Positions 4,086-63,945 of a stretch of DNA of 64,000 nucleotides are shown piece after piece. The notes under the pieces were generated by a model. The model did not search any database. It saw only the letters and a list, made by a program, of their open reading frames with translations, and was not told the origin of the DNA. The position numbers and the translations under genes are program-made. The number at the start of each line of letters is the position of its first letter. The stretch's first letter is position 1. Source of the stretch: an uncultured Coriobacteriaceae bacterium (GTDB taxonomy: Bacteria; Actinomycetota; Coriobacteriia; Coriobacteriales; Coriobacteriaceae); contig CALUOB010000002.1 in assembly GCA_944322175.1 (NCBI GenBank), forward strand, positions 29,078 to 93,077. The letters are read 5' to 3'.

Positions 4086-5653
4086 AGAACTTCTCGTTTG
4101 CCTACCCTGGCGAGGGGCGGGGAGCAAGCTTTGACATGGGGGCCGCCGGCGCCGATGCCGGGCGAGTTGCCGCACACGATACCGAGCAGACGAGCGGATG
4201 GGCGCTCAGCAACGTGTCGTTCTCGGTTGAAGAGGGCGCGTTCTGCGTGCTTGTGGGTCCCACCGGCTGCGGCAAGACCACGCTGCTGCGCGCGCTCAAG
4301 CCCGAGCTTGCCCCTGCGGGCGAGAAGCGCGGGTGCATGCGCGTGCTCGGACGCGCGGTTCTCGAGGACGGCGTTGCGGTTGCGGGCCTTACGGCGCGTG
4401 AGTCTGCGGAGCAGATCGGGTTCGTTATGCAGGATCCCGCCGCGCAGATCGTGTGCGACACCGTGTGGCATGAGCTTGCCTTTGGCCTTGAGAATCTCGG
4501 CATGGGACAGGACGAGATGCGCCGCCGCATTGCCGAGGTCGCGCACTTCTTTGGAATCGAGCCCGTTATGCGCGCCGCCACCGAGACGCTGTCGGGTGGC
4601 CAGAAGCAGCTTGTGAACCTGGCTGCCGTGCTTGCGCTGCGGCCGCGGCTGCTGCTGCTCGACGAACCCACCGCGCAGCTCGACCCCAACGCGCAACGGC
4701 AGTTCATCTTCATGCTTGCCCGTGTAAACCGCGAGCTCGGCACTACGGTCGTCATGGCAACGCACGCTCCCGAGGACGCGGAGCCCTACGTGACACAGCG
4801 CGTTGAGCTCGGGTATGTGCCGCCCCTCGGGGAGCGCGCCGCCGTGCGCGTGCCGCTTGCAGTTGGGCAGGAGCCGACCCCCTCGACCCCCTCGACCCCC
4901 TCGACCCCCTCGACCCCCTCGACCCCCTCGACCCCCTCGACCCCCGCGCTTCTCGTCAAGGACGCCTTCTTTAGGTACGGCCGCCGCGACCCGTGGGTGC
5001 TGCGCGGGCTGAGCGTGCGCGTGAGCCCGGGTACCGTCCACGCGTTCGTAGGCGGCAACGGCTGCGGCAAAACCACGTTGCTGCACCTCATGGCCGGCGT
5101 GCTCAAGCCCCAGGACGGCCGCGTGCTGAGCCCGCACGCCGACCGCCAGGTGCTCATGCCCCAGGATCCCAAGGCGCTTTTGGTGTGCGACACGGTTGCC
5201 GAGGAGCTCGCCGAATGGCGCGCGCGGTGCGGCTACACTGCCGAGGACGAGCGGCGCGTGTGCGCACGCTTCGGCCTTGACGGGTTAGAGAACCGGCACC
5301 CGTACGATCTCTCCGGCGGCCAGCAGCAAAAGCTTGCGCTCGCAAAGCTCTTGCTCGCCGACCCGCAGCTGCTCTTTCTCGACGAGCCCACCAAGGGCCT
5401 CGACGCGTCTGCCTGCGCCGATGCCGCGCATATGGTGCGCGCGCTTGCGGCGGAGGGGCGCACGGTGGTGCTCGTAACCCACGATCTCGACTTTGCCTAC
5501 GCGGTGGCCGACGAGGTCTCGATGCTTTTTGACGGCGAGCTTGCCTGCACGGAGCCCTCGGCAACCTTCTTCGCGCGCAACCTCGTGTACCGCCCGCACG
5601 ACCGGTCCCGCTTCTTCGGGGCGCTTGCGGCTTGCGAAGGGCGGCAGCCATGA
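4067..5653 (+). CDS. Fused double ABC ATPase of an ECF transporter (EcfA-EcfA')
   Basis: Track ORF 3272-5653 is in frame, but its first 265 codons overlap ecfT out of frame. A GTG at 4067 is preceded by aaggagg (4052-4058). There are two ABC cassettes: GPTGCGKTT / LSGGQKQ / LLLLDEP and GGNGCGKTT / LSGGQQQ / LLFLDEP. They are joined by a (PST)x7 linker. Confidence 0.85.
   Translation: MAIVQVENFSFAYPGEGRGASFDMGAAGADAGRVAAHDTEQTSGWALSNVSFSVEEGAFCVLVGPTGCGKTTLLRALKPELAPAGEKRGCMRVLGRAVLEDGVAVAGLTARESAEQIGFVMQDPAAQIVCDTVWHELAFGLENLGMGQDEMRRRIAEVAHFFGIEPVMRAATETLSGGQKQLVNLAAVLALRPRLLLLDEPTAQLDPNAQRQFIFMLARVNRELGTTVVMATHAPEDAEPYVTQRVELGYVPPLGERAAVRVPLAVGQEPTPSTPSTPSTPSTPSTPSTPSTPALLVKDAFFRYGRRDPWVLRGLSVRVSPGTVHAFVGGNGCGKTTLLHLMAGVLKPQDGRVLSPHADRQVLMPQDPKALLVCDTVAEELAEWRARCGYTAEDERRVCARFGLDGLENRHPYDLSGGQQQKLALAKLLLADPQLLFLDEPTKGLDASACADAAHMVRALAAEGRTVVLVTHDLDFAYAVADEVSMLFDGELACTEPSATFFARNLVYRPHDRSRFFGALAACEGRQP
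4880..4942 (+). repeat. Perfect 7 x 9-bp tandem repeat (ccctcgacc) encoding (PST)7 in the inter-cassette linker
   Basis: Read directly: ccctcgacc repeated seven times in frame inside the ATPase gene. Confidence 0.95.
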
Positions 5654-53432: not shown

Positions 53433-53849
53433 GTGGGACGCAGGCCAGACATACCGGCCGAGGGGCCCAAGTACGCGATGGTCAACGTGCGCATGGCGCC
53501 GGCGGCCCGGGCGGCGGGAAACGCTGCCCTGGCCGCCGCGGGCGTTACGCCCACTGAGGCCGTGCGCGCGCTGTGGGCCTTTGCGGCGCGGCACGCGGGC
53601 GACCCCGCGCGCGTGCGCGACCTGGTCGAAGCGCTCAGAGGCGAAGGGACCGAGGCGGTCCTAAGTCAGGAGAAGGTCGAGCAGTTCGGCGCGTTTTGCG
53701 ATGCGCATCTTTTCGAGGCGGAGCTTGCGCGCATGGGGCTTCCCTGGGATGCCGACAGGGCGGAGGTTCTCGAAGGCATGAACGGCCTTGCTGACGCTGC
53801 TTTGCCCGCCGAACCCTCCGAGGATGCGAGCCGACCTTCTCGCCTCTGA
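53433..53849 (+). CDS. RelB/DinJ-like ribbon-helix-helix protein (orphan antitoxin-like)
   Basis: MVNVRMAPAARAAGNAALAAAGVTPTEAVRALWAFAAR resembles the DinJ N-terminus (v-x-v-R-x-d...A-x-x-v-l-x-x-x-G-l-t-x-s-x-a-i-r). No RelE/YafQ-like partner is adjacent. The true start may be the internal Met at 53478. Confidence 0.4.
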   Translation: MGRRPDIPAEGPKYAMVNVRMAPAARAAGNAALAAAGVTPTEAVRALWAFAARHAGDPARVRDLVEALRGEGTEAVLSQEKVEQFGAFCDAHLFEAELARMGLPWDADRAEVLEGMNGLADAALPAEPSEDASRPSRL

Positions 53850-54042: not shown

Positions 54043-56337
54043 TTACCCGAGGACGCGCTGCGGGTCGAGCCACGCGGGCATGTCGGGGCTCACCACGCGG
54101 GCGCACACATAGGCGCGGGGCAGCGAGACGATGCTTGCCGCCTGGTACGCACCCGAGGGCATGCGGTCGAGAACCACGGCACAGTCGGTAGCACGGTCGT
54201 CGACGAGGCTCATGGGCAGCAGAAGCTTGAGCTTTTCGGCGCGCGGGTCGTAGGCGGGAGCCGCCGTGCGGTAGCTGCGCTGGCAGCGGCGCACGGCAAG
54301 CTCGATAGCGTCATCGAGCGTCCGGCACATACGGCGGCGCAGTGCCGCGTCTGCGTCGATGGCGCGCGCGAGGCGGCGCAGGGCCTCGGCGCGATCGAGC
54401 GGTTGCACCGACGAATCCGTTGCCTGACGGAGAAGCTCCTCGGTGGCGCCGGATCCGTCGAGATGCTCATGCAAGAAGCCCTGGGGCAGGCGCTCGAGGC
54501 AGGGGCCGAGCAGTGCGCGGTAGTCGGGAACGACGAGCGCGTCGGCGCTGGGAACGATCTCGTCGAGCGAGGTCAGGTAGCTTGCCGGGCGCGGCGCGCT
54601 GCCGAATTCGGCTATGATGCGCTGTCCGAGCTCGCCCGAGCCCGCCACGGCAAAGCCCGCGAAGCGCCAGGGGATATCGGCCCCCGAGGGCTCGAAGCAA
54701 GCGCAGATGTCTTCGTACGTTGCGTTCCACAGGCCGGTGTTGAACATGGCGAGCGAGCCGTCCCGGCTTACGAGCACGCTGCCCGTGGCGGAGAGGCGCG
54801 CAAACGTGACGGCAAGGTACTCGCGCAAAATGCCGTAGCGCCCGCCGCCCAGTGCGTCGGTGTTCCAGCGCTCGGCGCCTGCCGTGCGCGCGAGCTCTCC
54901 CAGCAGTGCGTCCCAGCCGCCGATAAGGGCAAACTGTGCGAACGCGCGCACGGGGCTGTAGCCGTCGCCGAGGGTGCCGGCGCGACGGTCCTGCGCGGAG
55001 AGGTCGGCCCAGGCGCCCTCGTCTTCGCGCGGCAGGCCGTCGAGCCCCACGGCCTCGTGGGCCGACCCCGTGCCGTCGTCGCCGTCTACGAGCGCGATCT
55101 CCCAGCGCGCGCCCGATCCGGGGCGGCCGGACCGCTTCATGGTCACCTCGACGGGGGCGGAGCCGTCCTCGCGCAAAAAGCGCAGCGGGAAGGTCACGCG
55201 GTTGCGGCCGCCTTGGAGCGTGCCGGTGGAGCGGGCAACGCGCCAGTCTTCGTCGAGAAGTGCCATAAGGTCGACCTGCACGGGCAGGATGCGCATGAGC
55301 AGGCCGAGCGCGGACTGACGGCAGTGGACGTCCTGCGAGATGGAGGCGGGGTAGTCGTAGCGGCGCGCGGACCCGGCGGAAGCGTAGCCGGTTGCGGGTG
55401 CGGCATGCTCGGCGACGGGGGAGGCATGCCGAGTTTCGGGTGCGACGGGCGCGGGTGCGCTCTGCGGCTCCTGCTCCTCGGCGGCGGGCTCGTCGTCGGG
55501 GACGTAGGTGATGGTGAGCGAGATGCGGTCGCGGGGCTCCGGAGCAGCCGGGGCGTCTGCGCGCTCAGCTGCTTCGGCGGGCTCGGCGGGCGCTGCCGGC
55601 GAGGCGGTGGGAGCGTCTGCGCCGTCGGTGGCTGCGCTGTCGTCGGAGGCGACGATCGGATTTTCCGCGGGAGCAGGCGCGGCTGCGGCTGTCGCGGCAG
55701 AGGCGGGGGCGCCCGCAGCGACCTGCGCTTCCTGCTCGGCGTTGTTCTCGACGGTCTGCGAGGCAACAGTTGCCGCCTCTGCTATGGGCGTGGTTGTCTC
55801 GGTGTTTGCCGAGTCGCTGTTGCCTGCCTCCGCCGTAGCCGTCTCGTTGCGCACAGGGGCGGCGCTGCCCGCATCGCCGGGCTCGGGCGCATTCGTCTCT
55901 TGAGCGGAGGGTGCCGCGGGCGTCTCGGCAGCTGCGGGCGCGGCAGGGGTCTCAGCGGCCTTCTTCTTGGGCTTGCGCTCGCGCTTGCGGCGCGGCTTCA
56001 CCGGTTTTACGGCCTTTTTCTGGCGCTTCCAGGGCTTTCCCGAGGCGGCTGCCTTGCCTGCGGCCTTCTCGGCTTTGGCGAGAAGCGCATCCCACTCGGG
56101 CTGCTGGCGCACGATCACGTACACGCGGCCGCCCTTGAAGATCTTGAGCTCGATGAAGGAGTCGAGCAGCTCGAGTGCGGCGCGCACCGACTCGGCGCCC
56201 AGGTCGGCCGCCTCGATGCCGTCTTGGGCAAGCGCCTCCTCAACGTGGGGCAGCAGGGTCTGCTTGCCCACGCCGATCGTCTCCGACAGCAACTGGTAGA
56301 GGTAGAGCTGGTTGTTCAGCGTAAGGGTTGTCTGCAT
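54043..56337 (-). CDS. OST-HTH/LOTUS-like N-terminal domain + Lys/Pro/Ala-rich basic linker + DUF3825-like C-terminal domain protein
   Basis: Start at the ATG at 56337 (MQTTLTLNNQLYLYQLL...). The first 85 aa look like an OST-HTH fold (LLPHVEEALAQDGIEAADLGAESVRAALELLDSFIELK). Then comes KPWKRQKKAVKPVKPRRKRERKPKKK and about 200 aa of Ala/Pro/Glu low complexity. The C-terminal 400 aa (YGILREYLAVTFARL...FNTGLWNATYEDI...LLLPMSLVDD) fits my recollection of DUF3825. Needs HMM confirmation. Confidence 0.5.
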   Translation of the reverse strand: MQTTLTLNNQLYLYQLLSETIGVGKQTLLPHVEEALAQDGIEAADLGAESVRAALELLDSFIELKIFKGGRVYVIVRQQPEWDALLAKAEKAAGKAAASGKPWKRQKKAVKPVKPRRKRERKPKKKAAETPAAPAAAETPAAPSAQETNAPEPGDAGSAAPVRNETATAEAGNSDSANTETTTPIAEAATVASQTVENNAEQEAQVAAGAPASAATAAAAPAPAENPIVASDDSAATDGADAPTASPAAPAEPAEAAERADAPAAPEPRDRISLTITYVPDDEPAAEEQEPQSAPAPVAPETRHASPVAEHAAPATGYASAGSARRYDYPASISQDVHCRQSALGLLMRILPVQVDLMALLDEDWRVARSTGTLQGGRNRVTFPLRFLREDGSAPVEVTMKRSGRPGSGARWEIALVDGDDGTGSAHEAVGLDGLPREDEGAWADLSAQDRRAGTLGDGYSPVRAFAQFALIGGWDALLGELARTAGAERWNTDALGGGRYGILREYLAVTFARLSATGSVLVSRDGSLAMFNTGLWNATYEDICACFEPSGADIPWRFAGFAVAGSGELGQRIIAEFGSAPRPASYLTSLDEIVPSADALVVPDYRALLGPCLERLPQGFLHEHLDGSGATEELLRQATDSSVQPLDRAEALRRLARAIDADAALRRRMCRTLDDAIELAVRRCQRSYRTAAPAYDPRAEKLKLLLPMSLVDDRATDCAVVLDRMPSGAYQAASIVSLPRAYVCARVVSPDMPAWLDPQRVLG

Positions 56338-56490
56338 GGCACGTCCTATCATGAGAAGAACAGGCAGCAGCCGGATGAGCCGGCCGCTGCCCGCTGGTTT
56401 TCTCTATCAGCTTAGCACGCCGCGTGCGCCTTGGGCGCCTGGCACCGGCCGGGCGGCTCTGCGCGCGGCGGAGCGGCTCCTGCTCTGACC

Positions 56491-58935
56491 CTAGCGCCAC
56501 CCGAGCACGCGCTCGCGCATGCCCGCGACGTCGAGCACGCCGTGGGCAAAGCCCTTGCGCACGAGCTCTTCGGGCAGCAGCCCGTCGTACTTCTCGAAGA
56601 GGGGCACCTCGCCGGGGTACACGAGCTCGATGGGATCGAAGTCGCGCGCCGCCTCTAGCTGCACCACCTCGATGAAGCGCTCCCTGCTCGCGTCCATGAG
56701 GAAGGTCATGAAGTAGGGGCGCGAGGAATCGAGCCCGCGCAGGTTGAGCGCCGGGGCGCACTTGATCTTGAGCAGGCGCTCGAGTGCGAGAAACGCGTAC
56801 GTGCCGAGCCAAGGCACCAGGCAGTACATGTTGCCGCCGAGGTTGATGAGCGGAGTGGTCGTGAGGTGCGCGACGCGCGCCGCATGCCGGGCCTGCGCCA
56901 GTCGCGCGCGGGCGTGCGTGCGCAGGTACGGATACACGGCGTCTTCGGTGAGGACGTCGCGCATGCGCTCCAAGATGCGCGTGTTCACGTCGCCCGCCAC
57001 CTCGCCGAAGTACGCGGGGACCTTGCCCTTGACCTGGGTTGCGTAGACGATGTGGCGCTTGTGGTCGAGCTCCTCCACCACCCACACGTGCCCGGCGATG
57101 GCGATCTTCTCGCCCGGGGGCGGAGGTTGCACGAGCGTCCCGACCTCCTGCGACTCGCTGCGCACCGTGTACTCCTCGTTCTCTTGGAACACCGCGTAGA
57201 ACTTGAACGAGTTGGTAACGCGCTCGCCGGCGAGGCCAACGATGAGGCCGCCGGTCTCGGTCTGCTCGATGTGGTCGGTTTTGATGAGGTGGCGCAGGAG
57301 CACGCGGAAGTCGTCTTGGCTCACGCGATGGAAGTAGGTGAGCGTGAGCACGCGGCTTGCGAGCTGAGCCGGGGTGAGCTCGCCCTCGGAGGCGAGGGTG
57401 GCGAGCGTTTGGTGGTACAGCAGGCTGTAGGGCAGGCGGTCGAGGCGCGGCGGCTCCACCCACTTCTCCTGACGGTACAGCTCGACTAAGGCGATGCCCT
57501 GCAGGAGCTTCCAGGGAACAGTCTCGGGCAGCAGGGAGCGCGGCTCGGGCTGCTCCTCGCGCATGACGAACCACATCTCGGGCGGGGTGCCGCGCCTGCC
57601 GGTGCGGCCCATGCGCTGCAGAAATCCCGAGACCGTAAACGGCGCGTCGATTTGGAAAGCGCGCTCGAGTCGGCCGACGTCGATGCCCAGCTCGAGCGTG
57701 GCAGTGGCGATGGTGGTGAGGTCGCACGCGTCGTCGCGCATGAGCTCCTCGGCGCTTTCGCGATAGCTCGCCGAGAGGTTGCCGTGGTGGATGAGGAACC
57801 GGTCGGGCTCGTGGCGCGCCTCGCAGTAGCTGCGCAGCGTGGTGCACACGGCCTCGGCCTCCTCGCGCGAGTTGGAGAAGACCAGGCACTTGCGCCCGCG
57901 CGTGTGCTCAAAGACGTACGCCATGCCCGGGTCGGCGTTGACGGGAGCGGCGTCGGTTGCCTGCTCGCCTGCGGGCTGCTCGACCGAGACGTCGGGCTCG
58001 AGCGGGGAGGCATCGTGAGGCGCGACACCTGAGGCCGCGCCAGGGCGGGGCGCTGCGGGGCGAGGCTGGGGAGCGGCCGGAGCGGGAAGGACCTTGCTGT
58101 GCTGGGCGACAACGGGACCTGCGGCGCTTATGCGCTCGACCTGAACCACCTCAGCCGGGATGGGGGCGCCTGTTGTGGGGGCCGCTGCAGCTCCGCCACC
58201 CGCGCTCCAAGCGGGCAACTCGTCTGCCTGCGGTCCGGTGATATAGAAGTGCTCCATAGAGATGCGCCACGTGCGCGGCGGTTCCTTGACCTGAGGAATA
58301 ACGCAGCCGCGGCCGGTGCCTTGCGAGAGGAAGGCGCCGACGGCGCGCGGGTTGCCGATGGTGGCTGAGAGCCCGATGCGCCGCGGGTTGACCTGCGCCA
58401 TGCGCCCGAGCCGCTCGATGAGGCACAGCGTCTGCCCGCCTCGGTCTCCGCGCAAAAGCGAGTGGACCTCGTCGATTACGATGTAGCGCAGGTCGCAGAA
58501 CAGCCTCGACACGGCGGCATGCCGATGCATGAGCATGGCCTCGAGCGACTCGGGCGTGATCTGCAGCACGCCCGAGGGCTTTTTGAGCATCTTAGCCTTG
58601 TGCGACTGCGAGACGTCGCCGTGCCAGTGCCAGACCGGGATCTCGGCCTCGGAGCAGAGGTCCTCAAGGCGATAGAACTGGTCGTTGATAAGCGCCTTGG
58701 TGGGGCCAATATAGATGGCGCCGACCGAGGCGGGCGGGTTCTCCCAGAACTCGGAGAGGATCGGGAAGAACGCGGCCTCGGTTTTGCCCGAGGCGGTTTG
58801 CGCGGTGAGCAGGAGGTTCTCGTCGGTGTTGAAGATAGCGTCGGCAGCGGCAACCTGGATGCCGCGAAGCGACTCCCACTCATGGCTGTAGATAAAGTCC
58901 TGCACAAAGGGCGCGAACCGGTCGAACACGCTCAT
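56491..58935 (-). CDS. Lhr-like DEAD/DEAH (DEVH) box helicase with DEAD_assoc-type C-terminal domain (BrxHI / SngC-like)
   Basis: Motif I AQTASGKTEAAF, Ia YIGPTKALINDQ, II VIDEVHSL, III LSATIGN. RecA2 motifs FSNSREEAE, HHGNLS and QRMGRTGRR. Long C-terminal domain as in Lhr. About 100 aa of Pro/Ala-rich sequence is inserted between the two RecA lobes. Confidence 0.85.
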   Translation of the reverse strand: MSVFDRFAPFVQDFIYSHEWESLRGIQVAAADAIFNTDENLLLTAQTASGKTEAAFFPILSEFWENPPASVGAIYIGPTKALINDQFYRLEDLCSEAEIPVWHWHGDVSQSHKAKMLKKPSGVLQITPESLEAMLMHRHAAVSRLFCDLRYIVIDEVHSLLRGDRGGQTLCLIERLGRMAQVNPRRIGLSATIGNPRAVGAFLSQGTGRGCVIPQVKEPPRTWRISMEHFYITGPQADELPAWSAGGGAAAAPTTGAPIPAEVVQVERISAAGPVVAQHSKVLPAPAAPQPRPAAPRPGAASGVAPHDASPLEPDVSVEQPAGEQATDAAPVNADPGMAYVFEHTRGRKCLVFSNSREEAEAVCTTLRSYCEARHEPDRFLIHHGNLSASYRESAEELMRDDACDLTTIATATLELGIDVGRLERAFQIDAPFTVSGFLQRMGRTGRRGTPPEMWFVMREEQPEPRSLLPETVPWKLLQGIALVELYRQEKWVEPPRLDRLPYSLLYHQTLATLASEGELTPAQLASRVLTLTYFHRVSQDDFRVLLRHLIKTDHIEQTETGGLIVGLAGERVTNSFKFYAVFQENEEYTVRSESQEVGTLVQPPPPGEKIAIAGHVWVVEELDHKRHIVYATQVKGKVPAYFGEVAGDVNTRILERMRDVLTEDAVYPYLRTHARARLAQARHAARVAHLTTTPLINLGGNMYCLVPWLGTYAFLALERLLKIKCAPALNLRGLDSSRPYFMTFLMDASRERFIEVVQLEAARDFDPIELVYPGEVPLFEKYDGLLPEELVRKGFAHGVLDVAGMRERVLGWR

Positions 58936-60110
58936 GCGCGCACCTCCCTAGCGGCATCGTGCGGCGCGCGGTCGAGGGCTTCGCGCAGGTCGGCGAGGCG
59001 TCTCCTGCTTACGGGCAGCGTGGAGCCGTTGTCGAGCGTGATCTCGGTGGCCGATACGGAGCGCACGTGCTCGAGGTTGACCACGATCGAGCGATGGCAG
59101 TACACGAAGCGGCTGTGCGGCAGCGCCTCGGCGATCTGGCGGAGCGGCATGTTGAGGCGCACCGAGGCTCCGTCGGCAAAGCGGATGGCCCTCGCGCGGT
59201 TGAGGGACTCGACGTAGGTCACGTCTGCGGGTGCGAAGCTCACGGCCTGCGTAGGCGTGGAGAGAACCACGGGCTCCTCTTGCGGCGAGGTGGCCTCGCG
59301 CTTCTCGAGCTCCGTCACGCGGCTTTGGGCCTGGGCGAGCTTGCTCGAGAGCTCGGCATGCTTAAGCTCGTGAAGCAGCAGCGCCCTTTCGAGCCTGACC
59401 TGCTGCTCAGCCTGAGCGCTCGATTCGCGCAGGGTGCGCAGGAGCCACCAGATGAGCGCGACGCAGTCGATGGCCACGACGAAGCCCAGGGAGAAGTACA
59501 TGCCCGCAAAGTCGAAGGGCAGCAGCCATCCGCCGACGAGGAGCGTGGCGACGATCATCGTGAGAAGCGCGGTCATGCGCCACCATGTTGCGCTGGTGAT
59601 CTGCGAGGCAAAGGCTCGCTTGACCGAGCGCATGATGGATGCCATGGCGGCAAAGAAGACGGCGTTGGTGAGGGTGAGCACCACGAGTCGCGACGGATAG
59701 TACATCTGGCCGTCGTTCTCATCGAAGCCCAGGAGGTAGGAGACGTTTGACGAGGTAAAGGTCACGAGGAAGCCGTAGAGCATGACGAGCGAGAAGACAA
59801 AGGCCTTGTGCGACACCTCGGCGCGCACAACGCGGACGTAGAGGATGAAAAGCGCCGCTACCGTGACGAGAAAGACGAGGTTCTGCAGGATGCTGCGCGC
59901 ATCTGCCACCGCGCTCTGCGGCGCGAAGTGCGCGCCCGCCGCTACGAGCAGGAAGGGCACGAGCCCTGCGACAACAAGCGCGCCCGCCTCCATCCATGCC
60001 CGCTTCGTGCTCACGCGAAACCGCCCGTCAAACGGCAAGAGGCACAGGATGGCGGCGGGGGCGATCTGCACGATGAAGCCGATAACGCTGCGAATGATGA
60101 TCTCTGCCAT
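58932..60110 (-). CDS. Polytopic membrane protein (about 6-7 TM) + coiled coil + C-terminal LytTR DNA-binding domain
   Basis: The N-terminal 230 aa form a run of hydrophobic helices. Next is ESSAQAEQQVRLERALLLHELKHAELSSKLAQAQSRVTELEK. Then comes the LytTR pattern VTYVESLNRARAIRFADGASVRLNMPLRQIAEALPHSRFVYCHRSIVVNLEHV. The stop overlaps the helicase ATG (ATGA at 58932-58935). Confidence 0.8.
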   Translation of the reverse strand: MAEIIIRSVIGFIVQIAPAAILCLLPFDGRFRVSTKRAWMEAGALVVAGLVPFLLVAAGAHFAPQSAVADARSILQNLVFLVTVAALFILYVRVVRAEVSHKAFVFSLVMLYGFLVTFTSSNVSYLLGFDENDGQMYYPSRLVVLTLTNAVFFAAMASIMRSVKRAFASQITSATWWRMTALLTMIVATLLVGGWLLPFDFAGMYFSLGFVVAIDCVALIWWLLRTLRESSAQAEQQVRLERALLLHELKHAELSSKLAQAQSRVTELEKREATSPQEEPVVLSTPTQAVSFAPADVTYVESLNRARAIRFADGASVRLNMPLRQIAEALPHSRFVYCHRSIVVNLEHVRSVSATEITLDNGSTLPVSRRRLADLREALDRAPHDAAREVRA

Positions 60111-60119
60111 GGCAAGCGC

Positions 60120-61496
60120 CTAGATCGTGAACTCGGCGAAGGGCGCCGCTGCGTCGTCTGCGCCCTGCATGTTGCCAGGCAGGGCGGTACCCGCCTGAGG
60201 CTGCGCGTAGGAAAAGCTCTCGGAGTGCAGGAGATCGGCCACCGACACGCCCGGGTTTTGGCAGACGATGTCGAGCAGCTCGATGAAGTCGCGGATCACC
60301 TCGCGCGGGGTCAAGTGCGTGTCGGCCCCCACGCGGCCGAACTCGATCTGCAGAAACTCCACCAGGTCGTCTTCGGTGAGCGTGGGCGCGTAGCCAAAGT
60401 AGCCGGCATGGATGTTCTGGAGCTTCTCGATCAGCACGAGAAGCTCCTCGTAGGTGAGCGGCACGAGTTTGATGACGGGCGCGAGCATGTCTTTGAGGTC
60501 GTCGCGCGCAAAGCGCCCGTGGGTGAGGCGACTGCGCAGCGCCTCGTAGGAGAAGACGCCGCGCCGCCGATCCTCGATGGACTGAGGCGTGCCGCCCATG
60601 ATGATGCCGAGGTAGCGCGCCTTGCCCTGGAGGGTGTCGTTGTACATGGTGAGGATCTTCTCGTAGTTGTACTGGCGCGTAACGGCGTTGGGGATCTTGT
60701 AGAGGTTCACGAGCTCGTCGATAAGCACGAGGAGCCCTTTGTAGCCTGCGCCTTTGAGGAACGTGGCGAAGAGCTTGACGTACTCGTACCAGTCGTCGTC
60801 GGTGATGCAGATGTTTACGCCGAGCTCTTGGCGGGCCTCGGTGCGGTTGCGGTACTCGCCGCGGAACCACTTGACCACGAAGCCCTTGGTGGTCTCGTCG
60901 CCCTCGACGTAGCTCCGGTAGTACAGCGTGAGCAGCCGCGCAAAGTCAAAGCCGTGAACCATCTCTTCGAGCGACCCGATAACGGCGTAGATGCGCTGCT
61001 CCACGGCGGCCGAGAAGCGCTCGTCCGAAGGGTCGAGGCCCTCCTCCGCGGCAACGGCTGCCTGGATGTTGGAGATCCACCGGTCGAGAATCAGCGTGAG
61101 CGCGCCGCCTTCGGGGCGGGTTTTGGTGGAGAGGTTGCGGATGAGCTCGCGGTACGTGGCGAGGCCCTGCCCCTTGGTGCCCTGCAGGCGGCGCTCGGGC
61201 GAAAGGTCGGCATCGGCTACGACGAAGTTCTCGCCCATGGCGTGGTTGCGGATGGTCTGCAGCAAAAAGCTCTTGCCCGATCCGTAGCGCCCGACGAGAA
61301 ACCTAAACGAGGCGCCTCCTTCGGCGATGAGGTCGAGGTCGTGGAGCAGCGCGGCGATCTCGGTCTCGCGGCCGACGGTGATGTAGGGCAGGCCGATGCG
61401 CGGCACCACGCCGCCCTTGAGCGAGTTGATGAGCGTGGCGGCGATGCGCTTGGGCACGCGCACGGGCACATGCGCGGGGCTGGTTGCGTGGCTCAT
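60120..61496 (-). CDS. DUF2791-family P-loop ATPase (BrxD / SngB-like)
   Basis: GRETEIAALLHDLDLIAEGGASFRFLVGRYGSGKSFLL (Walker A) and LLVLIDELVNLY (Walker B). Overall layout is as I recall for BrxD/DUF2791. The ATG overlaps the upstream TerB gene stop by 4 nt. Confidence 0.7.
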   Translation of the reverse strand: MSHATSPAHVPVRVPKRIAATLINSLKGGVVPRIGLPYITVGRETEIAALLHDLDLIAEGGASFRFLVGRYGSGKSFLLQTIRNHAMGENFVVADADLSPERRLQGTKGQGLATYRELIRNLSTKTRPEGGALTLILDRWISNIQAAVAAEEGLDPSDERFSAAVEQRIYAVIGSLEEMVHGFDFARLLTLYYRSYVEGDETTKGFVVKWFRGEYRNRTEARQELGVNICITDDDWYEYVKLFATFLKGAGYKGLLVLIDELVNLYKIPNAVTRQYNYEKILTMYNDTLQGKARYLGIIMGGTPQSIEDRRRGVFSYEALRSRLTHGRFARDDLKDMLAPVIKLVPLTYEELLVLIEKLQNIHAGYFGYAPTLTEDDLVEFLQIEFGRVGADTHLTPREVIRDFIELLDIVCQNPGVSVADLLHSESFSYAQPQAGTALPGNMQGADDAAAPFAEFTI

Positions 61497-63571
61497 AGGG
61501 CAGATGCTCCTCTCAGGAGGTCTTCGATGTCTTCATGATAGTCCTCGACGAGGACGGGAACCGTGCCGTCAAACTCGATGACGGCGTCGCCGACGACGTC
61601 GAAGAGCTTCTCGTTCAGGCAGTCAACGGCCACGCTCGGCAGCGCGCCGGTTTGCGCAAGCGCGCCCGACGGGTCCGCGCCGGCGAGCAGCGCTTCGAGC
61701 AGCTCGGTCTCGGCCGCGGTGAGGTTGAGACCGTCGGGTACGCCGCTTGCTGCGGGTGCCGCAGGCGTAAACGGGCCGATGGGGGAGAAGGACGGCTGTG
61801 CTGCGCGGGGAGCGTCGTGCGCTGACTCCTGCGGCGCGTGCCCTCTTGCCGGCTCTTGCGCAGCGGGCGGCGGGGCTTCCTCTGCGGAGCGCGCTGGTTG
61901 GGTGCTGCGCGTGGCCGACGGGCTTGCCGCCTGAGGCACGACGCGCGCATCGGCTTCGCCCGGCTGAAGGGGCGCCGGAGCATGACCGAGGTCCGCCTCC
62001 GCGCGCACGGGAGCCTGCTCGCCGCGCTCCTCGTCTACAAGCAGGGCCTCTTGCGTGAGCGCCGCCGCGGCGCGGATCTGCCCCAGCTGAGACCGGTCGA
62101 TGCTGATCCGCCGCGGGGCGTGCGCCTTCTTCCAAGGCAGGTAGCGTGCGATCTCTTGATCGATCATGTGCGCGAGGTACTTGCGCACGGATGCCTCTTT
62201 GAGCGGGGCGGAAAACGCCTCGGCGTCGCGCAGGCGCTGGTCGATGGCGCGCAGGATCTTTCCCAGCTGGGTGCTGGTGCTGCGGGCCCCCTGGAAGCGC
62301 TTGCACCACCAGCGGCCGCGCGTGCAGAAGTAGGTTTCGACCGCGCTCAGCTCGTACGTTGTCTCGGCATGCGGTTCCTCTTCGTAAAACACCGCCGAGG
62401 CAAACATAGAGTAGGGAAGCGTGGCGCGCTCACCGAAGAGGCTCTCCACGAGGTCGCTTTTGCGGTTGGACCGATAGTAGCGCGCCAGACGGCAGAACAC
62501 GGCAGCGCACACGCGCCGCACGTCGTCGGGTTCCTCCTTGTACAGCCTGCCGTTCTCGATGCGGTAAGACGAGAGCGATGCCAAGGCCGAGAAGAGCTCC
62601 GCCTCGTCAAAGGGCGGGTGCGCAAAGTCGTAGGGCGCCTCGCGCCGGCGCTTGCGCTTGCCTGCGACGGGCTCGGTGCCCGGGGCGCTGCTGGCGGCAT
62701 GCCGAGTGTCAGCCGCCGGCATGGGGTCAGGAGCCTCCGCAGGTTGCTGGAGGCCGAAACGCTGGCTCGGCAAAACCACCTGGGGCAAGCGCGCCGCGCC
62801 GGTGCCGATGTCGAGGCGGCGGCTTCCCACTACGGCGGCCTGCGCGCGGGCAGCCACCGCAAGCGCCGCGTCGTGCGCCTGGTCTGCCGAGGCGGCGAGA
62901 AGCGTGCGGTCGAGTCCGTGGTATACCACGTAGTCGCGCATCCAGCGGCGAGCGTACCGGTCGATCTCGGGGGCGAGGTCGCGGTAGGCAAGCCAGAACG
63001 AGCGGAGCTTCTCAAAGCCTTCGGCGGGGGTCTGCGACCCCACGGAATTGACGAGCTCGTAGAGGTGCGTGAAGGCAAACGAGAGCGGCGCCTTCTCCAC
63101 CGTGCCTGCGCGCAGGTGGGTGCGCCAGGTGAAGTAGCCGCGCAGTTGCCGGTCGTTCATCTGCTGGTAGGTCGGGAAGTAGCGCTCGAAGGTGCCGTGG
63201 TAGGGGCAGTCGTCTTCCCAGTCGGCCATAAAGCGCGCCTGTGCCACAAAGATGCGCCCCGCCTGCGGGTCGAGTCCGCTTTCGAGCAGATTGGCGCCGC
63301 GCTCGGCGTGCATGCGCTGCGCCCACGAAGGGCGCCCGCCGGATGAGCGGGACGCGCCGCCCGTTCCGTATGAGCCGGTCCATGCGCCGAGGTCCTGTGC
63401 GATCTGGCGCATCTCGCGGTACTTCTCAGGGAGGTAGGAGTCCATCTGCGCGGCTGTTTTGAGAATGGGCTCGTCTTGGTAGACCGCCGACGAGAAGTGC
63501 GCGCTTTCTTTGAGGCGCGGGTTGGAGAGGATCTGCGCGATGAGCTGCTCGGTTGTACGTGAAGCTGCCAT
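61493..63571 (-). CDS. TerB-N and TerB-C domain protein (SngA-like)
   Basis: The N-terminal region FVAQARFMADWEDDCPYHGTFERYFPTYQQMNDRQLRGYFTWRTHLRAG...FAFTHLYELVN matches the TerB_N pattern (P-x-Y-x-x-M-x-x-x-Q-x-x-x-Y-x-x-W-R..., Y-x-F-x-Y-x-Y-E-L-I-N). The C-terminus LNLTAAETELLEALL...VDCLNEKLFDVVGDAVIEFDG...VLVEDYHEDI matches TerB_C. RBS gggagg. Confidence 0.65.
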   Translation of the reverse strand: MAASRTTEQLIAQILSNPRLKESAHFSSAVYQDEPILKTAAQMDSYLPEKYREMRQIAQDLGAWTGSYGTGGASRSSGGRPSWAQRMHAERGANLLESGLDPQAGRIFVAQARFMADWEDDCPYHGTFERYFPTYQQMNDRQLRGYFTWRTHLRAGTVEKAPLSFAFTHLYELVNSVGSQTPAEGFEKLRSFWLAYRDLAPEIDRYARRWMRDYVVYHGLDRTLLAASADQAHDAALAVAARAQAAVVGSRRLDIGTGAARLPQVVLPSQRFGLQQPAEAPDPMPAADTRHAASSAPGTEPVAGKRKRRREAPYDFAHPPFDEAELFSALASLSSYRIENGRLYKEEPDDVRRVCAAVFCRLARYYRSNRKSDLVESLFGERATLPYSMFASAVFYEEEPHAETTYELSAVETYFCTRGRWWCKRFQGARSTSTQLGKILRAIDQRLRDAEAFSAPLKEASVRKYLAHMIDQEIARYLPWKKAHAPRRISIDRSQLGQIRAAAALTQEALLVDEERGEQAPVRAEADLGHAPAPLQPGEADARVVPQAASPSATRSTQPARSAEEAPPPAAQEPARGHAPQESAHDAPRAAQPSFSPIGPFTPAAPAASGVPDGLNLTAAETELLEALLAGADPSGALAQTGALPSVAVDCLNEKLFDVVGDAVIEFDGTVPVLVEDYHEDIEDLLRGASAL

Positions 63572-63614
63572 GCGCCGCCCCTCCCTTCGTAATAGGTGCC
63601 CATTCTACCACAGA

Positions 63615-63658
63615 CGCAAACATCTGTTCGGATTTGCGGGGAGCAGCAGATGTTTGCG
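63615..63658. promoter_or_regulatory. 12-bp perfect inverted repeat in the leader/promoter of the TerB operon
   Basis: cgcaaacatctg (63615-63626) pairs with cagatgtttgcg (63647-63658). It lies 44-87 nt upstream of the TerB start codon. Confidence 0.8.
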
Positions 63659-63660
63659 CG

Positions 63661-63836
63661 CAACAAGCATCCCCCAAACGCCGGGATTGTCGCACCCGGT
63701 GGGCCCCGTGCTCCCTCCTCCAACAAGCATCCCCAAACGCCGGGATGAGCGAACGACGCCACGAAACCGACAAAAAACGGGCTCAAAGTGTCGGAAACGT
63801 GGCGTCGGTCAGATGGAATTGTCGGAAACGTGGCGT
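63661..63836. repeat. Two sets of direct repeats plus an inverted copy upstream of the TerB operon
   Basis: caacaagcatcccc(c)aaacgccggga occurs at 63661-63686 and 63721-63745. tgtcggaaacgtggcgt occurs at 63789-63805 and 63820-63836. gacgccacgaaaccgaca (63755-63772) is an inverted version able to pair with 63789-63806. Confidence 0.85.
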
Positions 63837-63945
63837 TTGCTGTGGAACGTCCGGTGGGGAGGACGGCTGTCTGCAGCGCAGCCGGCTGCGTTTGCGGCAG
63901 GGCTCTGCGGTAACGACCAGCTTGCCGGCACGCCTGGCAAGCGGT

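Follow-up and report, generated by a model that had tools for sequence, protein, structure and literature searches.

Shango genes with an embedded membrane LytTR gene

The window analysed here is the whole 64,000-nucleotide (nt) stretch of DNA from an uncultured Coriobacteriaceae bacterium (contig CALUOB010000002.1, positions 29,078 to 93,077). On its minus strand it carries three genes that are predicted to form Shango, a three-gene anti-phage system validated in E. coli and P. aeruginosa (PMC10250203; bioRxiv 10.1101/2022.05.11.491447; 10.1101/2025.09.30.679545). Between the second and third of these, sngB and sngC, lies a gene for a transmembrane (TM) protein with a LytTR domain, which we will refer to as TM-LytTR. 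A preliminary description of this DNA, made from the letters alone, had proposed that the four genes form an undescribed "Shango-like" defence architecture of which TM-LytTR is an integral cistron. The arrangement is indeed undescribed, in that PADLOC-DB v2 has no model for it and no paper in the literature searched joins TM-LytTR and Shango. The integral status of the extra gene was not supported: none of the six non-self relatives sampled through SngB has it, the position that it occupies takes other cargo elsewhere, and the gene and the Shango core decay separately.

The layout itself was confirmed by open reading frame (ORF) calls and from the sequence. Four tightly packed minus-strand ORFs are present at the coordinates given previously (Table 1). 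sngA and sngB overlap by 4 nt at 61493-61496, nine nucleotides (gcgcttgcc) separate the sngB stop codon TAG from the ATG of TM-LytTR, and an ATGA at 58932-58935 is common to the TM-LytTR stop and the sngC start. The GC content ranges from 0.62 to 0.72 over the four genes and, as had been stated, is even across the block; that of TM-LytTR (0.63-0.67) is close to that of the adjacent sngB (0.62-0.65), so that there is no compositional break. The Shango genes are thus co-oriented and tightly packed, with one foreign cistron splitting the adjacency of sngB and sngC.

Profile searches carried the assignment of the three core genes beyond "Shango-like". In SngA, Pfam detects TerB_N (1.7e-28) and TerB_C (1.2e-17), and the PADLOC SngA profile matches at 6e-76. 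SngB matches BrxC_BrxD, the former DUF2791, at 6.4e-169 and PADLOC SngB at 2.7e-189, compared with 6.4e-50 for BrxD; its Walker A (GRYGSGKS at residue 69) and Walker B (LLVLIDE at residue 256) motifs are intact. SngC contains DEAD (1.8e-27) and Helicase_C (2.5e-17), matches PADLOC SngC at 4.1e-269 compared with 1.3e-122 for BrxHI, and retains the motifs SGKT, DEVH (residue 155) and QRMGRTGR (residue 440, of the QxxGRxGR type). The families named in the preliminary description, including LytTR in the embedded protein, were all recovered with the exception of DEAD_assoc, which was not detected in SngC at E<0.01, and the term "Lhr-like" is therefore valid for the helicase core only. Since BrxD and BrxHI belong to some BREX types, membership in BREX was also considered and rejected: the NCBIfam BrxD model gives SngB 170 bits, under its 350-bit cutoff, and no PglX or PglZ Pfam family occurs within 10 kb on either side in the annotated twin locus L015, which extends to that locus the absence reported earlier for the window. 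Because of the PADLOC and Pfam assignments, the intact motifs and the lack of PglX and PglZ in the twin locus, we identify sngA-sngB-sngC of the window, by sequence, as Shango itself, a canonical operon that would be expected to act against phages.

Table 1. Features of the window (first eleven rows) and of related Coriobacteriia loci; SngB percentages are sequence identities.
Feature or locus	Position	Strand	Description
sngA	61493-63571	minus	692 aa; TerB_N/TerB_C protein; two low-complexity Pro/Ala-rich inserts
sngB	60120-61496	minus	458 aa; BrxC/BrxD-family (DUF2791) P-loop ATPase
TM-LytTR gene (embedded)	58932-60110	minus	392 aa; putative membrane sensor-regulator
sngC	56491-58935	minus	814 aa; DExH helicase; Pro/Ala-rich insert between the two RecA-like domains
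Intergenic region upstream of sngA	63572-63945	minus	promoter-like boxes and repeats
Extended -10-like box TGGTAGAAT	63610-63602	minus	assigned by eye
Ribosome-binding-site-like GAAGGGAGG	63588-63580	minus	from sequence
Perfect 12-nt inverted repeat	63615-63626 and 63647-63658		repeat analysis
~24-nt direct repeat, two copies	63661-63687 and 63721-63746		59-60 bp spacing
17-20-nt element, two copies	63789-63805 and 63820-63836		31-bp period
Inverted copy of 17-20-nt element	63756-63772		16 nt downstream of the array
Second LytTR regulator	L003 ~4980-5560; L007 and L014 5874-6626		sngB thus flanked by two different LytTR genes
Window and L015 (twin strain, same species)			TM-LytTR Shango-embedded; compact, intact
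L001 (Enorma burkinafasonensis)			Shango-embedded; compact
L012			Shango-embedded; 555-aa gene of no known kind before sngC
L014			Shango-embedded; opposite-strand RelB/PIN pair before sngC
L021			Shango-embedded; 2.1 kb extra DNA before sngC
L007 (Olsenella sp. SW781)			Shango-embedded; 2.7 kb extra DNA
L003 (Olsenella sp. An290), L005 (O. uli An820)			Shango-embedded; ~1 kb between sngB and TM-LytTR gene
L002, L024, L025			TM-LytTR stand-alone; after rpoA-rplQ-ecfA-ecfT, before huge SLH/YDG surface proteins
L006, L009			Stand-alone; beside recR-ybaB-dnaX
L011			Stand-alone; adjoins crcB and a Peptidase_C1/Lectin/SLH gene
L016			LytTR-less; SngB 82% (SngC also 82%), nearest distinct relative; 15-nt sngB-sngC spacer, nothing between
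L017			LytTR-less; SngB 76%; 9-nt sngB-sngC spacer, nothing between
L020			LytTR-less; SngB 74%; 83-aa TacA-like ribbon-helix-helix protein between sngB and sngC
L026	1689-5074		LytTR-less; SngB 80%; three opposite-strand genes (333, 313, 298 aa) and Rrf2 regulator
L028			LytTR-less; SngB 79%; Phd/ParE-like small ORFs between; syntenic with LytTR-bearing L012
L031			LytTR-less; SngB 75%; GH4 glycosidase gene on the opposite strand after sngB; no sngC before the end of the locus

The embedded protein resembles an AgrC-type sensor joined to a LytTR output domain

Pfam finds a LytTR domain alone in the embedded protein (2.7e-18, residues 292-379), and with the PADLOC-DB v2 models PADLOC returned no match. 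An AlphaFold2 model of the protein, built on 20 family members and with a predicted local distance difference test score (pLDDT) of 81, places helices at residues 2-27, 35-59, 67-94, 99-126, 139-167 and 173-196. These six hydrophobic helices are followed by a seventh, which runs on as one long helix (201-274), and by a beta-rich LytTR fold at 281-381; the sensor domain takes up about residues 1-230. The earlier characterization of the protein as one with six to seven TM segments, a coiled coil and LytTR is borne out by this model. The LytTR fold superposes on the LytTR domains of AgrA, ComE and 3d6w (Foldseek E 6e-8 to 1e-5, TM-score ~0.8), and the residues YCHRS.VVN and PVSRR of the LytTR signature do not vary among family members. 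DNA binding by this domain is predicted, and with seven hydrophobic helices and a LytTR fold on one polypeptide the protein has the build of a transmembrane one-component regulator.

For the seven-helix domain Foldseek gave no significant fold match in the Protein Data Bank, the G-protein-coupled receptors and rhodopsins appearing at E ~0.4-1, and the question was resolved instead by a sequence-profile search. A profile of residues 1-232 (alignment A2), searched against 1.84 billion representatives, matched 197 proteins. The close matches are TM-LytTR proteins, and the distant ones, which cover the full domain at E 1e-29 to 5e-46, are GHKL histidine kinases of 445-475 aa with HATPase_c_5, some of which also carry SPOB_a, a SpoOB-type helical domain. 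NCBIfam gives these HATPase_c_5 kinases weak AgrC matches, and by sequence we assign them to the AgrC/ComD class. The gene of one of them, P0204, ends 4 nt before that of a response regulator with receiver (REC) and LytTR domains. Residues 6-241 of TM-LytTR align to the sensor domain of P0204 (BLASTP, 35% identity, 8e-30) and residues 279-386 to the LytTR domain of its partner regulator (32% identity, 6e-18). Both halves of the protein thus align to a single kinase/regulator pair, whose kinase core and receiver TM-LytTR lacks, and for this reason we take TM-LytTR to be a one-component derivative of an AgrCA-type pair, a "collapsed AgrCA" in which the sensor has been joined to the output. It is accordingly not itself a member of such a two-component system, the homology to the kinase stopping at residue 241 and that to the regulator beginning at 279. 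Nor does it fit the LytTR regulatory systems (LRS; HdrRM/BrsRM), in which the gene of a cytoplasmic LytTR regulator precedes that of a separate inhibitor with 3-4 TM segments: it is a single fused protein with a kinase-type TM domain and the next gene downstream is sngC. The preliminary description was thus correct in recognizing a real TM-LytTR gene, but it missed the identity of the TM domain as an AgrC-type kinase sensor, and such a sensor points to transcription controlled by a ligand or signal. The family of AgrC-type sensors fused to LytTR appears to be undescribed.

Two loci have similar neighbours. At L034 (1557-6440) the AgrC-type kinase and the REC-LytTR partner to whose domains the embedded protein corresponds adjoin a gene for a Peptidase_C1/Lectin_like/SLH surface protein, and L011 (8001-12447), which holds the most basal stand-alone TM-LytTR, has a neighbour of the same Peptidase_C1/Lectin/SLH kind. 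A surface-protein locus of the L034/L011 type may be the site where the fusion of sensor and output arose.

TM-LytTR recurs beside sngB and is under purifying selection in the window lineage

The full-length family is small, comprising about 31 clusters at 90% identity that are 38-96% identical to the window protein, and in species-representative genomes all of its loci are in Coriobacteriia (Olsenella, Enorma, Collinsella, Slackia and a metagenome-assembled genome of Atopobiaceae). No full-length homologue was found in phage and plasmid collections and no transposase or integrase was seen in annotated flanks, and an origin from a mobile element was rejected on these grounds. The gene comes directly after sngB in at least 8 distinct Coriobacteriia Shango loci; across these loci the LytTR proteins are 51-63% identical and SngB and SngC 67-73%. 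In the intact compact loci the spacer between sngB and TM-LytTR is 9-11 nt long. The corresponding spacer in L014 and L021 shares homology with the one that separates sngB from sngC in the LytTR-less L016, which indicates a clean insertion or deletion at the level of the ORF.

In the window lineage the ratio of nonsynonymous to synonymous substitution rates (dN/dS) is 0.18 for TM-LytTR; sngB and sngC have values of 0.10, and a housekeeping control has one of 0.05. TM-LytTR is under purifying selection in this lineage. Synonymous divergence between the window (56491-63571) and L015 (7926-15006) rises along the operon, from 0.01 in sngA through 0.03 in sngB and 0.09 in TM-LytTR to 0.12 in sngC, which suggests a recombination mosaic; in the same comparison the dN/dS of sngA is unusually high (0.66) and derives from very few changes. 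Exchange is also evident from L005 and L021 (8001-9160), in which the flanking genes are 98-99% identical and the TM-LytTR alleles, which belong to different subclades, only 72%. The allele has therefore been replaced within the slot. In addition, a second LytTR regulator, a cytoplasmic protein of 250 aa with a DUF4440/SnoaL-like N-terminus, is encoded 67 nt upstream of sngB in L003, L007 and L014.

In a neighbour-joining (NJ) tree of TM-LytTR, all basal branches are stand-alone genes, and most members of the derived clade are Shango-embedded, a single stand-alone subclade falling within it. Loci with and without the gene are intermixed in the NJ trees of SngB and SngC, and monophyly of the LytTR-bearing Shango loci was therefore rejected. 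These trees have few taxa and were rooted at the midpoint; one capture followed by losses and repeated gains are both compatible with them.

The junctions of Coriobacteriia Shango act as cargo slots

SngB is very widespread, with more than 8000 matches and hundreds of clusters at 73-80% identity. None of the six sampled non-self SngB clusters carries a TM-LytTR gene, and this includes the nearest relative (Table 1). The same junction may be empty or may hold quite different genes. Cargo is found between sngB and sngC in L014, L020, L026, L028 and L031, and between sngA and sngC in L005, L021 and L014. The sngA-sngB junction is also used, by a 5'-nucleotidase gene and by an MFS transporter gene paired with one for a Zn-dependent alcohol dehydrogenase. 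In Coriobacteriia, chromosomal Shango takes up cargo at both of its intercistronic junctions and keeps its core genes intact, and cargo at these junctions has not been reported for Shango in the literature searched. It follows that tight packing and uniform GC content are no proof that a gene belongs to the system. In L026 the 298-aa gene has a faint match to SIR2 (E 0.028), and the three genes with the Rrf2 regulator may be an embedded, uncatalogued defence module.

TM-LytTR and the core genes can be lost one without the other. Deletions of 1 nt inactivate TM-LytTR in L007 (at position 583, by comparison with L014 8001-9160) and in L005 (at about 423), and in L003 the protein is truncated at its N-terminus; sngA, sngB and sngC are nevertheless full-length in all three. 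The converse is seen in L001 (6557-6877), where a deletion fuses the TerB_C region of sngA to about residue 100 of sngB, with loss of Walker A, and yet TM-LytTR and sngC are intact. The distance from TM-LytTR to sngC is also variable, amounting in five loci to 1.3-2.7 kb of unrelated genes, partly on the opposite strand. After the embedded gene, L003 and L007 share a gene for a homologous secreted protein, of which a domain of about 100 aa recurs in the surface proteins of L002 and L024. A cassette of TM-LytTR with a secreted protein was considered; this is suggestive only, since the 555-aa gene of L012 is unrelated and the window has none.

Repeats upstream of sngA

The preliminary description had proposed that TM-LytTR might regulate its own operon through repeats at 63615-63836. 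These repeats are real and far above chance expectation: the 17-20-nt element, for example, has 3 matches against 0.26 expected. A scan with the sigma-70 consensus passed no promoter upstream of sngA, the -10-like box thus resting on inspection by eye, and terminator-like matches did not exceed the expectation from shuffled sequence. A similar TGGTATCGT box is present in LytTR-less loci. The 31-bp unit has two copies in the window and three in L015 (7630-7722), so that copy number varies within the species. Two Olsenella-type loci, L014 (1785-2016) and L021 (1371-1600), have arrays of their own, in which an AT-rich core of ~100 bp is flanked on either side by a pair of ~40-bp units, the two pairs being inverted relative to each other. 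This layout calls to mind an invertible promoter or the divergent agr P2/P3 operator, and the L014 unit includes a stretch (ATCCCGGCGATTG) similar to the 24-nt repeat of the window (ATCCCGGCGTTTG). The corresponding regions of the LytTR-less loci L017, L020 and L028 are short and free of repeats.

Genes downstream of sngC

A fifth co-oriented gene, left out of the otherwise correct four-gene block of the preliminary description, starts 138 nt downstream of sngC (54043-56352, minus strand). It encodes a DUF3825 protein of 769 aa with a Pro/Ala-rich middle, for which PADLOC gave no match and the literature searched contained no paper. L015 and the LytTR-less L016 likewise have this gene after sngC. 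It was rejected as a further accessory gene of Shango, because DUF3825 is ubiquitous in Atopobiaceae (496 matches) and the Olsenella loci lack it next to Shango; the gene is probably just a neighbour on the chromosome. Further on, a 138-aa ORF without a Pfam match (53433-53849, plus strand) has a counterpart in L015, flanked there by the DUF3825 gene on one side and an ABC-F gene on the other, past which lies a Fic-domain gene. By eye its N-terminus is like that of the ORF next after sngC in L001 (11707-12057), and the two resemble RelB/DinJ-type antitoxins.

A proposed captured regulator in a permissive slot

We consider it somewhat probable (roughly 0.55) that the window holds canonical Shango together with an optional, captured, signal-responsive membrane transcription regulator, which would probably act on the operon, on envelope genes or on both. 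To about the same degree we favour the view that TM-LytTR was captured as an accessory regulator from a chromosomal Coriobacteriia family into a permissive Shango slot, and that it is not a core mechanical subunit. The gene is a minority, dispensable variant addition to a known system, with parts from well-known families. Its transcript would be shared with the Shango genes and its translation coupled to theirs. The protein would reside in the membrane as a dimer with its LytTR domains in the cytoplasm, where a putative signal at or within the membrane, such as a peptide, a small ligand or a change in membrane state, would alter DNA binding and so shift transcription of the Shango operon, of envelope and surface-protein genes, or of both. 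In this scheme, sensing and regulation are deduced from domain homology and from the precedents of CoxC and HigX, which are described below.

A bolder version, which we regard as unlikely though worth stating, is that Shango is gated by the signal itself: the AgrC-type sensor would perceive an extracellular peptide, a quorum signal or a membrane signal induced by infection, and the LytTR domain would switch the operon on or off and perhaps recruit it to membrane-proximal DNA. If this were true, a sensor for quorum or envelope signals would be linked directly, without a kinase, to an anti-phage system, and the fast divergence of the sensor together with allele replacement in a conserved Shango backbone would resemble the agr specificity groups.

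Several observations weigh against the capture of a regulator as we have framed it. The sample of LytTR-less loci is small, consisting of six non-self SngB clusters reached through SngB. The tight coupling to sngC and the long retention beside sngB are also what a stoichiometric protein partner would show. The two repeat motifs of the window occur in none of the other LytTR-bearing loci, being confined to the window and L015, and the LytTR-less L031 has an 83-nt tandem duplication at the position upstream of sngA. Classical AgrA and ComE sites are spaced at about 21 bp, and the periods of 31, 40 and 59-60 bp in the window and its relatives differ from this. The repeats were accordingly rejected as conserved LytTR boxes and, being species-specific and matched by an array in a locus without the gene, they are not usable as evidence for autoregulation, which may nevertheless take place.

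The rival that deserves most attention, although we think it improbable on balance, is that TM-LytTR is purely a passenger, an independent regulator of envelope or surface proteins that settled in a permissive slot of a chromosomal Shango of long residence, borrows the Shango promoter and has no role in defence. The variety of the cargo speaks for this, with RelB/PIN, TacA-like and Phd/ParE-like genes, Rrf2 with its companions of no assigned kind and GH4 after sngB, and the transporter, dehydrogenase and nucleotidase after sngA. So do the stand-alone relatives, which have housekeeping surroundings and large SLH/YDG surface proteins encoded after them, the secreted-protein genes after the embedded gene in L003, L007 and L012 (one of which shares a domain with surface proteins of L002 and L024), the independent decay of gene and core, and the precedent of HigX downstream of higBA (PMC13384398). 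On the other hand, TM-LytTR is the sole type of cargo that recurs across three divergent Shango lineages, always after sngB, and replacement of its allele within the slot suggests that the association itself is maintained. Three loci link a second LytTR regulator to sngB, and the window lineage, which has no accompanying surface-protein gene, still exhibits purifying selection and coupling to sngC. A stronger doubt attaches to the opposite reading, in which TM-LytTR is an integral fourth subunit of a four-gene subtype, tethering or activating SngB and SngC at the membrane, for example where phage DNA enters, or supplying an envelope signal beside TerB. The membrane-tether and envelope-sensing ideas of the preliminary description, to which this corresponds, are of low probability. 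The ATGA coupling to sngC, the 9-nt spacer after sngB, the uniform composition and the conserved position beside sngB across lineages would all be expected of a subunit, as would the membrane-embedded sensor domain of the AlphaFold2 model, and TerB proteins have been proposed to act in membrane surveillance (bioRxiv 10.1101/2022.05.11.491447; 10.1101/2025.09.30.679545). However, the closest Shango relatives function, or at least stay intact, without TM-LytTR; three genomes with a frameshifted or truncated gene have intact sngABC, and L001 has an intact gene where sngB is destroyed. Moreover, basal members of the family are unconnected with Shango, five loci interpose unrelated genes before sngC, and both domains derive from a two-component pair that regulates transcription. 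Finally, the broken genes of L003, L005 and L007 and an origin through loss of kinase core and receiver might be taken to mean that TM-LytTR is a decaying, non-functional relic of a rearranged AgrCA-type locus on its way out. This is very improbable, given that about 30 clusters, some with as little as 38% identity, keep the full-length architecture and at least 40 invariant residues over both domains, that dN/dS is 0.18 in the window lineage, and that the predicted structure is a confident one.

A Shango variant with its own membrane sensor-regulator would offer a handle on the signal that controls this defence and on its coupling to the envelope or the population. An AgrC-type sensor wired straight to LytTR without a phosphorelay would also be a compact and possibly engineerable regulator, and a new family of transmembrane transcription regulators. 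There is in addition a caveat for the discovery of defence systems, since the Shango junctions of gut Actinomycetota gather toxin-antitoxin modules, regulators and metabolic genes.

Comparison with known systems

The window shares with described Shango (Millman et al. 2022, 10.1101/2022.05.11.491447; Johnson et al. 2023, PMC10250203) the same three proteins, the gene order, the 4-nt sngA/sngB overlap and the intact motifs. It differs in that described Shango has three genes and the window has, precisely at the sngB-sngC junction, a further gene for a membrane LytTR protein of 392 aa. BrxD and BrxHI of BREX are homologous to SngB and SngC (PADLOC 6e-50 and 1e-122), but these scores fall well short of those for the SngB and SngC profiles, the twin locus L015 lacks PglX and PglZ, and the NCBIfam BrxD score is below its cutoff. 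The sensor and LytTR domains of AgrC/AgrA, an HPK10 kinase with a LytTR regulator, are homologous to the two halves of the window protein. Here the difference is that the window protein is without the DHp/CA kinase core and the receiver and has sensor and output on one polypeptide, so that no phosphorelay would operate within it. No agrB- or agrD-like genes were seen at the locus, where no search aimed at them was made.

A gene lodged within a defence operon has a precedent in the PrrC anticodon nuclease, which resides in the EcoprrI type Ic restriction-modification cassette and is an effector held in check by the restriction-modification proteins. The likeness lies in the extra gene between cistrons of a multi-gene defence operon. 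PrrC, however, is a defence effector, whereas the embedded protein of the window is of the transcription-factor type, and any physical link between it and the Shango proteins would be hypothetical.

Single-component LytTR regulators bound to the membrane have been described before (PMC11347149; PMC13384398; see also PMC10269533), but not with an AgrC-type sensor domain. CoxC is an MHYT-LytTR regulator whose binding sites in the promoter that it targets are direct repeats (PMC11347149), and HigX is a 4TM-LytTR regulator encoded immediately downstream of, and co-transcribed with, a horizontally acquired higBA, in a synteny that is not conserved (PMC13384398). Like both of these, the window protein combines a polytopic membrane domain with LytTR at its C-terminus, and as with HigX its gene is coupled to a conflict module. 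In contrast to both, its membrane domain is of the AgrC type with seven helices, and neither MHYT nor a four-helix bundle, and it has a long coiled-coil linker; its family is restricted to Coriobacteriia, and its gene lies within a defence operon, not after one.

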